Source: a virus (Duplodnaviria; Heunggongvirae; Uroviricota; Caudoviricetes). From it: a stretch of 12,509 nucleotides of DNA. This document shows positions 6,001 through 9,000 of this stretch, one piece after another (the first letter of the stretch is position 1; each line of letters starts with the position of its first letter). Made by a program: the position numbers. The stretch spans positions 1 through 12,509 of the IMG/VR virus record IMGVR_UViG_2609460344_000006. One strand, given 5' to 3'.

Positions 6001-9000
6001 CTTTAACCCTGGCGGTCTTCGCCGAATAACCGGCGGCAATGGCTGACGCTGTTTTGTTTTTCCCGGACATGAGCGCCAGCGCAAATTTTCGTTTTTGCGT
6101 TGTCAGCACAGCCTCCTCCCGGGTCCAGAACGCACTCAGCCGGGTATGGTTCAGCCCATTTTTCCCGGCGTCTCATGCCGCAAATGTTAACTGCTGCCTG
6201 GTTAACATTTTCTGAAAAAGCCAGTTAACATTTTTTTTCGCACAACAAACTGAATAATAAAGATAAAAACCGCAAAAATGCCCGGACAGCCAGTTAACAT
6301 GTTAACTGGCCTGAAACGGGAATTTTTTCTCTGCGTGAGAGGGGGCGCGGTGTCCGGAGCGATCGTTTTTTACGCCGAATGATACCCCCCCCCGGTCGGG
6401 TTACAGTCCGATGATGTCGTCCGCTCTGCCACTACCTCCGGACACCTCCGGCAGCGTCGGGTCCGGCATACCACCCGCCGCTTCACGAGCAGACTTTTGT
6501 CGATGGCATTCGGTACAGAGCGTCCAGAGATTCGTCTCCTCATTACCACCACCGAACTGAAGTGCAATTCGGTGATCGAGTTCACTGTCACAGAGGCCAA
6601 CCACACGACCACAGAGACGGCACTGCCCGGCGTCCCTGAGCCAGATATGACGCTTGAGGGAAACACGTGCACTGCCACTGACACGACGCTGTTAACCCTT
6701 CAAAATATTCACCCGTCGGGTATTCAGTGTTTTGATTCTGCTCTGGAGTGTACGAAGCTCAGCCATGTAAAATCCCCGTCATATGGCAATCAGTAAAGGA
6801 AATAAATATGTCATCGAAAAACCGGACCCGCAGAACCACAACCCGCAATATCCGTTTCCCCAATCACATAATTGAACAGATCAACATCGCCCTTGAGCAT
6901 AAAGGGTCCGGTAACTTTTCAGCGTGGGTTATTGAAGCCTGCAGGAGAAGGCTGGCAACAGATGCAACGCATCTGCGCCCGGCCAGCATGACAAATAACG
7001 AGAAATGAACGTTCGGTTTCTTCCACCATCGCACCGGACAGGCGACTATGAGGGGACAACGCCGCGCTCCGTTAACGCGGTAAACCCCGGTGTGTATCGT
7101 TTTTGATTATCCCCGCACACTCACGCAGAAGGAGTTCCCCGTCGGGCTACGGTCATGGTTAATGCGGGAATACAGCGACGATACAGCGCATGATGTGTCA
7201 GGCTTGAATACCTTTATCCGTTAAAAAGGATATCAGTTAAGTTATCCCGTGCAGGGTATAAGCCATTATCAAGCCCACCAGTAGATGGGCTTTGTAATGG
7301 CTACTTCGCTTTTGCTTCCGCTCGCTTACGCCGGCGCTTTTCTTTCTTCTCGGCTTTTGCCATGTCCATGAATGCCTGCATGATCGAGTTCCGCATCATG
7401 TAGCTGACAAAGTGATGATTGACACAGCCGTTGAGGCGCAACTGCTCGCCAAACTCATCCACCGAGGCCAATGCTTCCATCACGCCCTTCTCGCCTTTCA
7501 TGAACGCTGAGAAGTCGCGCCCCGCTCTGGAGGCGCATTCAATGACACGATCACGCATCCCGGAAGCCCGGGGATTGTGATCTGCAACTGGTTAGCCAGG
7601 GAGTTAATCTCAGCGATCAAACCAGGTTTCGTGTAGCGCCATGCCGCAAGGACTTGCCCGCAGAAGCTCGCCATATCTTTTTTCTGATCAAACTCATGAC
7701 ACTTCATATTGAGCTGCGCACTTAAGCTGTTGCGATGCTGAAGTTCTCCGGTGAAGTAGTCATCCAGGACTTTATAGGCTGCATATTTAAATCCGGGGTT
7801 TAGCCATGTTGCATAATCATAAGCAACAAACTTCCCGCCATATGTTCCACCGTGTACACCGCGCTCAGTAAAAACCACAGATTCGTGGTTTTTCTCCAGC
7901 TCGGCTAAGAACTCTTTGGTCTGCTTGTTTCGCAGGTAGTGGTACGGAGATTCAGATTCACTTTTACCACTGGCTTTCCACATATCAGTGAGGCAGATCA
8001 TGCCATCTTCAGCGACACGGATTGGCTGATTGAAGAGGGTTAATGATTTCATGTCGTATACCTGTTCTTTGAAATGAACCTTTGCCGCATAGGAAACCAG
8101 CCCACCGAGGCTCGCCAGCACTAACGGGTATCCTCAAAGGCCCATTCCAAAGGGTCAGGTTCGGTGGTTATTGTGCGCTGCGGTGCGCGGTGAAATATCT
8201 GTACAAAAATGCCCCGCATCTGCGAGGCTTTTAGCATGTGGAAAAGGTAGTTTATCGTCGCTCTTCAAGATAAGGATCTATGTTGCTAACTTTTTTGTAC
8301 TTCGGATCCTGCGGTAGTCGAACGGCGGGATCATATACAAGCCATATAGATTCAGACTTGCCATCTGAACCATCTGTGTTTTTACATGAGCGTAACTTGT
8401 AATGAATGATTCTATCTACGTCAGCGTACTCGGAGGTTGCATAAACTTCATATTTATTATCTCCGTGGCAAAGAATAGTTTTAACTAATTTTGTAGATGA
8501 CATGTCTGCTCCTTTGTAATTGATGGGTATGACATATGACCACCAATAACAGTGCCATATTTCTGGTGATTATTGCAGCAACGAAATTACAAGCCCACCC
8601 GTAGATGGGCTTTGTAATGGAGAGTCGTTGTGAAAGTGGCTCTCAGACTGTCATTTTTTCCCTTTCTGTTTACCTGCCCACTGTTTTGCAATGTACAGGC
8701 AGTCATCGAAAATTCGGCCTTTTCTGCTGGCTTGTGAACAACGACGATAATGCTCTACGGCCATATCGGCACCCATTAAGGCGACATTGGGATCATATCC
8801 CTGTTTCACTAGGACGCTTTTCACATTACAGTGGATGAATTGGATCGGGTTCATGCCGACTCTCCATCAGGAAAGTCTCCTAGATCAGGAATTGATAATT
8901 GGGTCAATTGCAAGGCAATCTCTGTAGCTTTCTTGATCAATTTAATGTCACGCTTACGCTGTGCCATCAAACCACTACCTTTTTTCCCGCGATATTTGAG

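Follow-up and report, generated by a model that had tools for sequence, protein, structure and literature searches.

Which protein reads a cluster of GTTAAC-centred repeats that lies just upstream of the small terminase gene of an Escherichia coli prophage, and for what purpose? The stretch analysed here, hereafter the window, comprises 12,509 nucleotides of a tailed phage (positions 1 to 12,509 of the IMG/VR record IMGVR_UViG_2609460344_000006), and five copies of the 8-mer GTTAACAT are gathered in it between the gene for an HNH endonuclease and the gene for the small terminase subunit (TerS). We consider it likely, on comparative grounds, that this array is the recognition part, or functional cosB, of a cohesive-end (cos) packaging system with HNH-dependent 3' overhangs, and we infer that TerS binds the sites.

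The clustering of the repeats is far beyond chance: GTTAACAT occurs exactly five times in the window, always within 6184-6306 (123 bp), against an expectation of 0.29 per window, and five copies were reached in 0 of 200 dinucleotide-preserving shuffles. GTTAAC itself was found nine times (1.8 expected), five of the nine lying inside 121 bp. In ascending coordinates the sites are 6184-6191 (minus strand), 6201-6208 (plus), 6224-6231 (plus), 6293-6300 (plus) and 6299-6306 (minus), and their orientations along the array, which extends from +30 to +156, read <- -> ... -> -> <-. Signed positions are counted in gene orientation from the predicted left end of virion DNA (see below), and on this scale the GTTAAC cores start at +34, +42, +111, +134 and +149. 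The elements of the array are as follows:

6289-6310, palindromic: sites 1 and 2, the perfect 22-bp palindrome GCCAGTTAACATGTTAACTGGC (+30 to +51), holding the 8-mers at 6293-6300 (plus strand) and 6299-6306 (minus strand)
6220-6231, plus strand: site 3, GCCAGTTAACAT, or ATGTTAACTGGC in gene orientation (+109 to +120), of which AAAAAATGTTAAC is unchanged in all six aligned lineages
6201-6208, plus strand: site 4, a GTTAACAT core (+132 to +139 in gene orientation)
6184-6191, minus strand: site 5, a GTTAACAT core within the 12-mer AGCAGTTAACAT (6184-6195), forming an inverted pair with site 4 across a 9-bp spacer

The initial annotation had described five copies of a 12-bp motif with a GTTAAC core in both orientations, a perfect 22-bp palindrome and an inverted pair with a 9-bp spacer, all placed between the HNH and small terminase genes. 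The palindrome was verified on the sequence, the arms of the inverted pair (6182-6191 and 6201-6210) are 100% complementary, and the order HNH (6766-6401), array, terS (6109-5546), all on the minus strand, is as described. The five cores are also present, but the 12-mer is exact in three copies only (6220-6231, 6289-6300 and 6299-6310), with two mismatches in the copy at 6184-6195 and three in that at 6197-6208 (counted by eye, the scan being limited to two mismatches); the invariant unit is therefore the 8-mer. Similarly, the left outer arm of the palindrome is mostly GGCA, not GCCA, among 49 distinct close relatives, so that the perfect palindrome usually spans 18 bp, the perfect 22-bp one of the window being a variant.

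Where does the array stand relative to the site at which the DNA is cut? The ends have been mapped in Escherichia phage Lys8385Vzw, an induced phage that is about 96% identical to the window in this region: PhageTerm analysis of its virion reads classified it as a cos phage with 3' cohesive ends, the cos sequence CGCCCCCCCT being located at the genome end (PMC7946995). Reading the ends of this record directly, we found the break 59 bp past the HNH stop codon (...GGACACCGCCCCCCCT / CTCACGCAGAG..., the slash marking the break), with a 10-nt 3' overhang, CGCCCCCCCT, immediately before it. By homology, the virion left end (+1) corresponds to window 6339 and the terS start to +231, the cut lying 30 bp from the palindrome on the HNH side; the array, at +30 to +156, therefore lies just inside the left end, with the cut on one side and terS on the other. 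The earlier suggestion that the array occupies the place of a cos or terminase-recognition site is thus borne out by the ends of Lys8385Vzw. A 3' overhang of about 10 nt between HNH and terS is found in this 96%-identical phage and is placed by homology in the window, where the elements concerned are:

6340-6349, minus strand: predicted 10-nt 3' cohesive end (cosN), CGCGCCCCCT, by homology to the Lys8385Vzw cos CGCCCCCCCT
6312-6393, minus strand: conserved cos core, a run of nine G followed by ..CGATCGC..GGACACCGCGCCCCCT / CTCACGCAGAGAAAAAATTCCCGTTTCAG (the slash marking the cut), conserved at the DNA level and kept in satellites devoid of HNH and TerL
6401-6766, minus strand: HNH endonuclease gene, from its translation; the intact 121-residue homologue of a relative matches PF01844 (HNH)
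5546-6109, minus strand: terS (187 residues; Pfam Terminase_2), with a GTG start and the Shine-Dalgarno sequence GGAGGAGG at 6112-6119
3888-5549, minus strand: terL (553 residues), the large terminase subunit (TerL), whose ATPase (PF03354, TerL_ATPase) and nuclease (PF20441, TerL_nuclease) cut cos

The HNH gene adjoins terS and terL on one strand, as in the HK97-type gene order, and is separated from terS by an intergenic region of 291 bp. In HK97-type cos systems the HNH protein is a packaging accessory that is required for cos cutting. Although non-coding, the cos core and the adjoining GTTAAC site (window 6293-6395) make up the only part of the window with DNA-level similarity to distant enterobacterial relatives, and the core is probably read by TerL and HNH.

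Two kinds of chromosomal islands serve as natural experiments on the core and the array. The first, L264 (E. coli Ec-042-T0, NZ_CP086544.1, 6772-7225), is part of an island adjoining clpS/yljB that carries genes for a RepA helicase, an Icd-like protein and a protease/major-capsid fusion, the latter with no detectable similarity to the fusion of the window. At its very end stand the cos core, an identical overhang and five GTTAACAT sites in unchanged order and spacing, with no gene downstream of them, and the island encodes no terS, terL or HNH. It is present in 21 of 5426 complete E. coli genomes and, judging from its sequence, is likely packaged by Stx-type (Shiga toxin-type) helper phages via the borrowed cos. 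The second kind, integrative islands (L183, 2446-10944; L171-L173; L176-L177), carries an integrase or AlpA gene, an AAA_25/D5_N replication gene, in L183 a capsid-like gene as well, and a TerS homologue that is 46-47% identical to that of the window. All of these islands are devoid of HNH and TerL, and their cos core is followed by AAAAGTTACAC repeats instead of GTTAACAT, repeats that in L183 and L176 fit the TerS type of the island itself. Taken together, the two kinds indicate that the shared core, presumably read by the TerL and HNH proteins of the helper, is separable from a TerS-specific part. A search of a plasmid collection for cos-only hitch-hikers returned just large chromosomal-like records and phage-sized replicons with terS.

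Is the array itself under selection? The entire intergenic region is conserved in the 49 unique close relatives, which are too alike for footprinting, and more diverged lineages were therefore used. Between +29 and +165, the motif bases of L167 (TerS 64% identical) are identical to those of the window at 38 of 38 positions, as compared with 58 of 99 for the other bases (Fisher p = 1e-7); the corresponding figures for the satellite L264 are 38/38 and 61/99 (p = 7e-7). L167 has the same architecture, with six GTTAAC sites. The flank of its unit changed from TGGC to CACC in the palindrome and in the solitary site alike and, both arms of the palindrome having changed, a perfect 22-mer is retained (GGTGGTTAACATGTTAACCACC). 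The inverted pair of L166 (67% identical) changed to GTAAAC in its two arms together, giving ATGTTTAC-N9-GTAAACAT.

A deeper comparison was afforded by TerS homologues that are 33-49% identical, from Salmonella phage FSL SP-016 and prophages of Atlantibacter, Kluyvera, Enterobacter, Citrobacter, Kosakonia, Serratia, Erwinia, Pantoea and Buttiauxella. Their HNH-terS gap is only about 110 bp (G7-8 ... GTAAACATCGATCGC..GGACACCGCGCCCCCT / CTCACGCACAGAAAAAATTCCCCTCTGGAGGGTGTAAACATGTTAAC, the slash again marking the cut), and a near-palindrome, GT(A/T)AAC(A/G)TGTTAAC, begins at +33/+34 and extends over the start codon of terS, located at +40 (ATG TTA ACx, i.e. Met-Leu-Thr). This start region, GTAAACATGTTAAC, is homologous to the palindrome of the window. 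A GTTAAC-like hexamer begins at +33 to +36 in every core-bearing element examined, a set spanning at least six TerS types from Escherichia, Salmonella, Serratia, Erwinia, Hafnia and uncultured viral contigs, while the E. coli lineage has about 190 extra bases after the palindrome (the spacer and three sites) and starts terS at a new GTG, served by a strong Shine-Dalgarno sequence. On this comparison, the single palindromic site is ancestral and the E. coli lineage gained both the extra 190 bp or so and the new terS start.

The overlap with terS shows on what level the constraint operates. Leu2 is encoded by TTA in 19 of 19 distinct distant terS genes, as against 1 of the 134 other Leu codons of these genes, and Thr3 by ACA in all 19 (24% elsewhere), while codons 4, 5 and 7-11 differ synonymously. 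In cases where site and start codon lie apart (the window, L167, L168 and L180), the gene begins GTG/ATG CTG ACx and the non-coding copies retain ATGTTAAC; in a Hafnia phage with another site type, it begins ATG TTG. As judged from codon usage, the constraint is on the DNA, not on the coding. These data also bear on the possibility that the copies are relics without function, left by repeated partial duplications at the 5' end of terS (ATG TTA ACx), a reading suggested by the homology of the palindrome to the terS start of distant relatives and by the sequence past the palindrome (CTGGC..TGTCCGGG), which resembles terS codons 11-16. Relics should decay, yet the 38 motif bases are invariant in two independent lineages in which 40% of the intervening bases changed; moreover, it is the coding copy that drifted, to GTG CTG, while the non-coding ones held, and fixation of TTA, a rare codon, is confined to the genes in which it overlaps the site. 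We regard the relic explanation as very improbable.

A role of the palindrome in RNA was also considered, in which a hairpin in the late mRNA would serve processing, stability or as a barrier to translation that separates HNH from terS, and duplication would have produced the other copies as by-products. The folding energy is -19.9 kcal/mol (z = -4.4) for the palindrome of the window and -12.9 for that of L167, and the outer arms vary between lineages yet remain complementary. However, distant relatives have the same site in the same place with no stable hairpin (-6.2 kcal/mol, z = +0.5), for which reason the hairpin was rejected as the primary conserved feature. In addition, the outer arm contains a mismatch in the majority of close relatives, solitary non-palindromic copies share the lineage-specific flank, and the satellite devoid of terS has lost none of the five sites. 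A search of the whole window against Rfam gave zero family matches, and we give an RNA or single-strand role little credence. Separately, we discounted as a gene a small open reading frame that starts at the ATG of the palindrome and would encode MLTGCPGIFAVFIFIIQFVVRKKMLTGFFRKC: a Shine-Dalgarno sequence is lacking, L167 conserves neither the length of the frame nor its stop, and the T-rich spacer accounts for the hydrophobicity of the product.

What, then, would read the sites? TerS matches PF03592 (Terminase_2) at 36 bits, for a cut-off of 26.1. Its residues 1-56 form a helix-turn-helix (HTH) domain of four helices, modelled by AlphaFold2 with a predicted local distance difference test score (pLDDT) above 90, whereas the model of the C-terminal half is of low confidence. 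Profile searches of the PDB with the N-terminus returned 3zqp, 4zc3 and 2cmp, with the DNA-binding domains of SF6, Pam5 and NV1 TerS as matches, and Foldseek aligned the N-terminal model with the SF6 G1P DNA-binding domain (4zc3) with a template modelling score of 0.85, a root-mean-square deviation of 1.6 A and 30% identity, PaP3 and NV1 TerS being matched as well. The protein thus has the N-terminal four-helix HTH of a Terminase_2, SF6 G1P-type small terminase. TerS proteins of the SF6 type are ring oligomers with outward-facing HTH domains, so that the palindrome would be read by two neighbouring HTH domains of one oligomer. The dimeric protein that the initial annotation had envisaged as the binder is therefore probably not the right one; by analogy, the structural match suggests that two HTH domains of one oligomer suit the 22-bp palindrome better than a free dimer does. 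In the model proposed for PaP3 TerS, a site of about 20 bp is read at its outer ends by a pair of adjacent HTH domains; the way in which small terminases attain sequence specificity is still debated (PMC7672466).

If TerS is the reader, the motif should follow the TerS type. The pairs of TerS N-terminus and site found across core-bearing elements were:

TerS ..KNKTASAIAAGYSAKTARVKGSQL: site CAGTTAACATGTTAACTG, five GTTAACAT sites in total
TerS ..MSQKDAAIKAGYSEKSARSKGSQL: site GTAAACATGTTAAC, located at the start codon
TerS ..SSQAEAARKAGYSEKTARSQGSRL: site GTTAACGTGTTAAC
TerS ..NPTEAA..AGYS.KTARVKG(W/C)QL: site AAAAGTTACAC, 1-4 copies
TerS ..SNQRQAAIHAGYSEKTAKVKGSQL (..KTAKVKGSQL): site GTTAACCC, 2-3 copies
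TerS ..MSNKDAAISAGYSEKTAMQQGSKL (..KTAMQQGSKL): site AAAAGTTAACTTTT, a 14-bp palindrome, 1-3 copies

The TerS N-terminal type is matched by the flanks of the site, by its variant form and by its number of copies (1-6); A-type and B-type elements differ at TerS residue 38 (Ser versus Trp/Cys) and in their sites (GTTAACAT versus AAGTTACAC). The co-variation with the TerS N-terminal domain that the initial annotation had put forward as a check was therefore found, with linkage contributing to it. That annotation had left the choice of binder between the small terminase and a late-gene regulator, and the former is favoured by the link between motif and TerS type, by the terS-less satellite that keeps the sites, by the satellites with no terminase gene but their own terS, in which another motif follows the shared core, and by the gene strand, on which a scan of 5900-6900 for promoters and terminators gave no signal. 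The alternative is that the sites are operators for another DNA-binding protein, a late or structural-gene regulator or a host factor, controlling terS, terL and the head genes. Palindromes with half-sites are a typical operator pattern, distant relatives have the site overlapping both the start of terS and its Shine-Dalgarno region, and a weak promoter-like match composed of motif copies exists on the antisense strand. This match is nevertheless within chance (2 found versus 0.7 +/- 1.0 expected), L264 retains the sites at its extreme end with nothing downstream to regulate, and the fixed distance is to the cut site and not to any promoter. Control by an operator-binding protein thus seems improbable.

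The sites nearest the cut and the distal ones are separated by an AT-rich segment:

6232-6288, minus strand: likely bendable AT-rich spacer of 57 bp, with two T5 tracts (+62, +71) and one A8 tract (+102)
6243-6255, minus strand: candidate integration host factor (IHF) site ATTCAGTTTGTTG (+85 to +97), one mismatch to WATCARNNNNTTR, between the proximal and distal sites

Apart from the block TT.T.ATTCA-N4-GTT, the spacer sequences of L167, L264 and L176 have diverged. The ATTCA-N4-GTT element with the T-rich bases just upstream is the only invariant spacer block across six sequences and coincides with the specified positions of the IHF consensus. With this footprint, ATTCAGTTTGTTG makes a reasonable candidate for an IHF bend site comparable to lambda I1.

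Packaging would then be initiated as follows. TerL and HNH would cut the conserved core at 6340-6349 (the ends being mapped in the 96%-identical relative and assigned here by homology), and the N-terminal HTH domains of an oligomeric TerS would bind the GTTAACAT sites just inside the left end. Two neighbouring HTH domains would read the palindrome at +30 to +51, and the AT-rich, probably IHF-bent spacer would bring the distal sites (+109 to +156) to the same TerS assembly, which would anchor the terminase on phage DNA and position TerL and HNH at the cut.

Several observations weigh against a TerS-read cosB. The position of the cut in the window rests on homology to Lys8385Vzw, and the IHF consensus match, taken alone, is not statistically significant (by our estimate, about 0.3 such one-mismatch matches are expected by chance). 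The sites are spaced by 8, 69, 23 and 15 bp, with no apparent helical phasing. L176 combines one GTTAACAT-type (A-type) site with four GTTACAC (B-type) sites, so that the motif classes are not clean; besides, the motif adjoins terS, and the co-variation could reflect co-inheritance rather than co-adaptation. HK97 TerS binds a single 15-bp site, +15 to +29, within its channel (PMC11331095); by analogy, an A-tract conserved family-wide at +10 to +19 could be the true TerS site here, the GTTAAC sites serving something else. Finally, the window's own HNH gene contains a nonsense codon.

This codon, an in-frame TAA at codon 25 (6692-6694), is GAA (Glu) in all of the approximately 90 relatives examined, and the mutation incidentally makes an extra GTTAAC. 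Since HNH is needed for HK97-type cos cutting, the window prophage probably cannot mature its own DNA unless HNH is complemented.

Some features of the cos core deserve mention in their own right. A GATC (Dam) site lies within CGATCGC at window 6361-6367 (-28 to -22 from the cut) and is conserved in the core of most enterobacterial relatives. Distant relatives L086-L104 have a second GTAAACAT across the cut, at -34 to -27, as a direct repeat of the +34 site; it changes together with that site (GTCAACG in L102-L104) and is degenerate in the window (GTAAAAAA, 6366-6373). In SPP1, the cut is flanked by pacL and pacR, and by analogy the second copy may be a left-flank TerS site. In several PPompW prophages, the insertion sequence ISEc20 (IS110 family) interrupts the G-run, about 40 bp upstream of the cut at cos (L182, 2775-4233; equivalent to window ~6387), beyond which come tRNA genes and Q, the HNH and lysis genes being missing; the cos-adjacent G-run may be a preferred target of this family.

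As for its origin, the window belongs to a lambdoid E. coli prophage of the BP-4795 / 2851 / YYZ-2008 / Stx1a-phage type, of which it forms the late region, and it shows 94-97% identity to many Stx-converting phages. The minus strand carries all of its genes, which in the direction of transcription encode holin, lysozyme, Rz, a Bro-N protein, a KilA-N protein and HNH, followed by the intergenic region, terS, terL, a protease-capsid fusion and the portal. The packaging module is found in many Stx1- and Stx2-converting phages, and the region of cos and array (window 6110-6400) in 1278 of 5426 complete E. coli genomes (about a quarter), with up to seven copies each. Co-resident prophages thus share near-identical packaging addresses, and cross-packaging and recombination among them should be possible.

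More tentatively, the GTTAAC array can be viewed as the portable packaging address of a large HNH-type cos family, in which the core is shared and the flank, variant and copy number of the TerS sites set specificity; two undescribed kinds of E. coli satellites would exploit it on Stx-type helpers, one copying the whole address without TerS, the other the core with its own TerS and matching sites, and TerS occupancy would feed back on terS expression where the site overlaps the start codon. This wider proposal is possible, but we hold it as doubtful. A known cis-acting address would aid in predicting which prophages and satellites are packaged and spread, help to explain cross-mobilisation among related prophages of enterohaemorrhagic E. 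coli and serve for cos vectors for these phages. The family also offers a tractable system for TerS specificity, with an 8-bp motif, natural variants paired with TerS, simple and complex architectures and a DNA-binding domain that has a solved structural homologue. We found no description of TerS sites for this phage family in the literature, the PhageTerm end of Lys8385Vzw being the only direct datum; the array is an element of the expected kind, not previously described for this E. coli Stx-type family.

How does the array compare with known systems? The HK97 cos and its gp1/gp2/gp74 packaging system were reportedly described by Kala et al. in 2014. The present system resembles it in that HNH adjoins terS and terL, TerL is of the PF03354 type and the cut between HNH and terS leaves a 10-nt 3' overhang (PMC11331095); an A/T tract shortly past the cut and, in the simple forms, a terS start about 40-50 bp from it are further likenesses. 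By contrast, HK97 gp1 matches no Pfam family (E <= 0.01) whereas the window TerS belongs to Terminase_2, BLASTP detected no similarity between the two TerS proteins, the cos sequences of HK97 and the window are unrelated, and HK97 has its single site threaded through the TerS channel, with no repeat array (PMC11331095).

With SF6/SPP1 G1P and PaP3/NV1, the window TerS shares the N-terminal HTH fold, while their DNA sites bear no sequence relation to those of the window. Packaging in SF6 and SPP1 is of the headful (pac) type, and the cohesive ends of PaP3 are different. The 'lateral interdigitation' model of PaP3/NV1 TerS, with its site of about 20 bp, fits the 22-bp palindrome (PMC7672466).

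Among satellites, L264, with its helper-type core, five sites and no terminase genes, resembles P4 and the cos type of Staphylococcus aureus pathogenicity islands (SaPIbov5), and L183 and L176, with core, own TerS and own sites, resemble TerS-encoding phage-inducible chromosomal islands (PICIs). These three islands lack hnh-terS-terL and portal genes and are therefore not capsid-forming PICIs (cf-PICIs) as a preprint defines them; in the comparison made, they matched no described satellite.

A close parallel in architecture is with the complex cosB of lambda (R3-I1-R2-R1), where the array lies between the nicking site and terS (Feiss laboratory; PMC4669245). At the sequence level, the window likewise has several short repeats of mixed orientation between cosN and terS, the first tens of bp from the cut, with a candidate IHF-type bend site between the first and distal sites and a palindrome (sites 1 and 2) that corresponds in position to R3. 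One-site and many-site versions occur within one family, as with the complex cosB of lambda and the simple cosB of N15, and specificity would reside in the TerS N-terminal HTH and the adjacent sites (PMC4669245). By contrast, TerS is unrelated to gpNu1 (an SF6-type HTH versus a winged-helix dimer), the overhangs are 10-nt 3' and HNH-dependent versus 12-nt 5' in lambda, the first site is itself a palindrome and there is no sequence similarity. In our reading, the array works like lambda cosB without being a member of that family.

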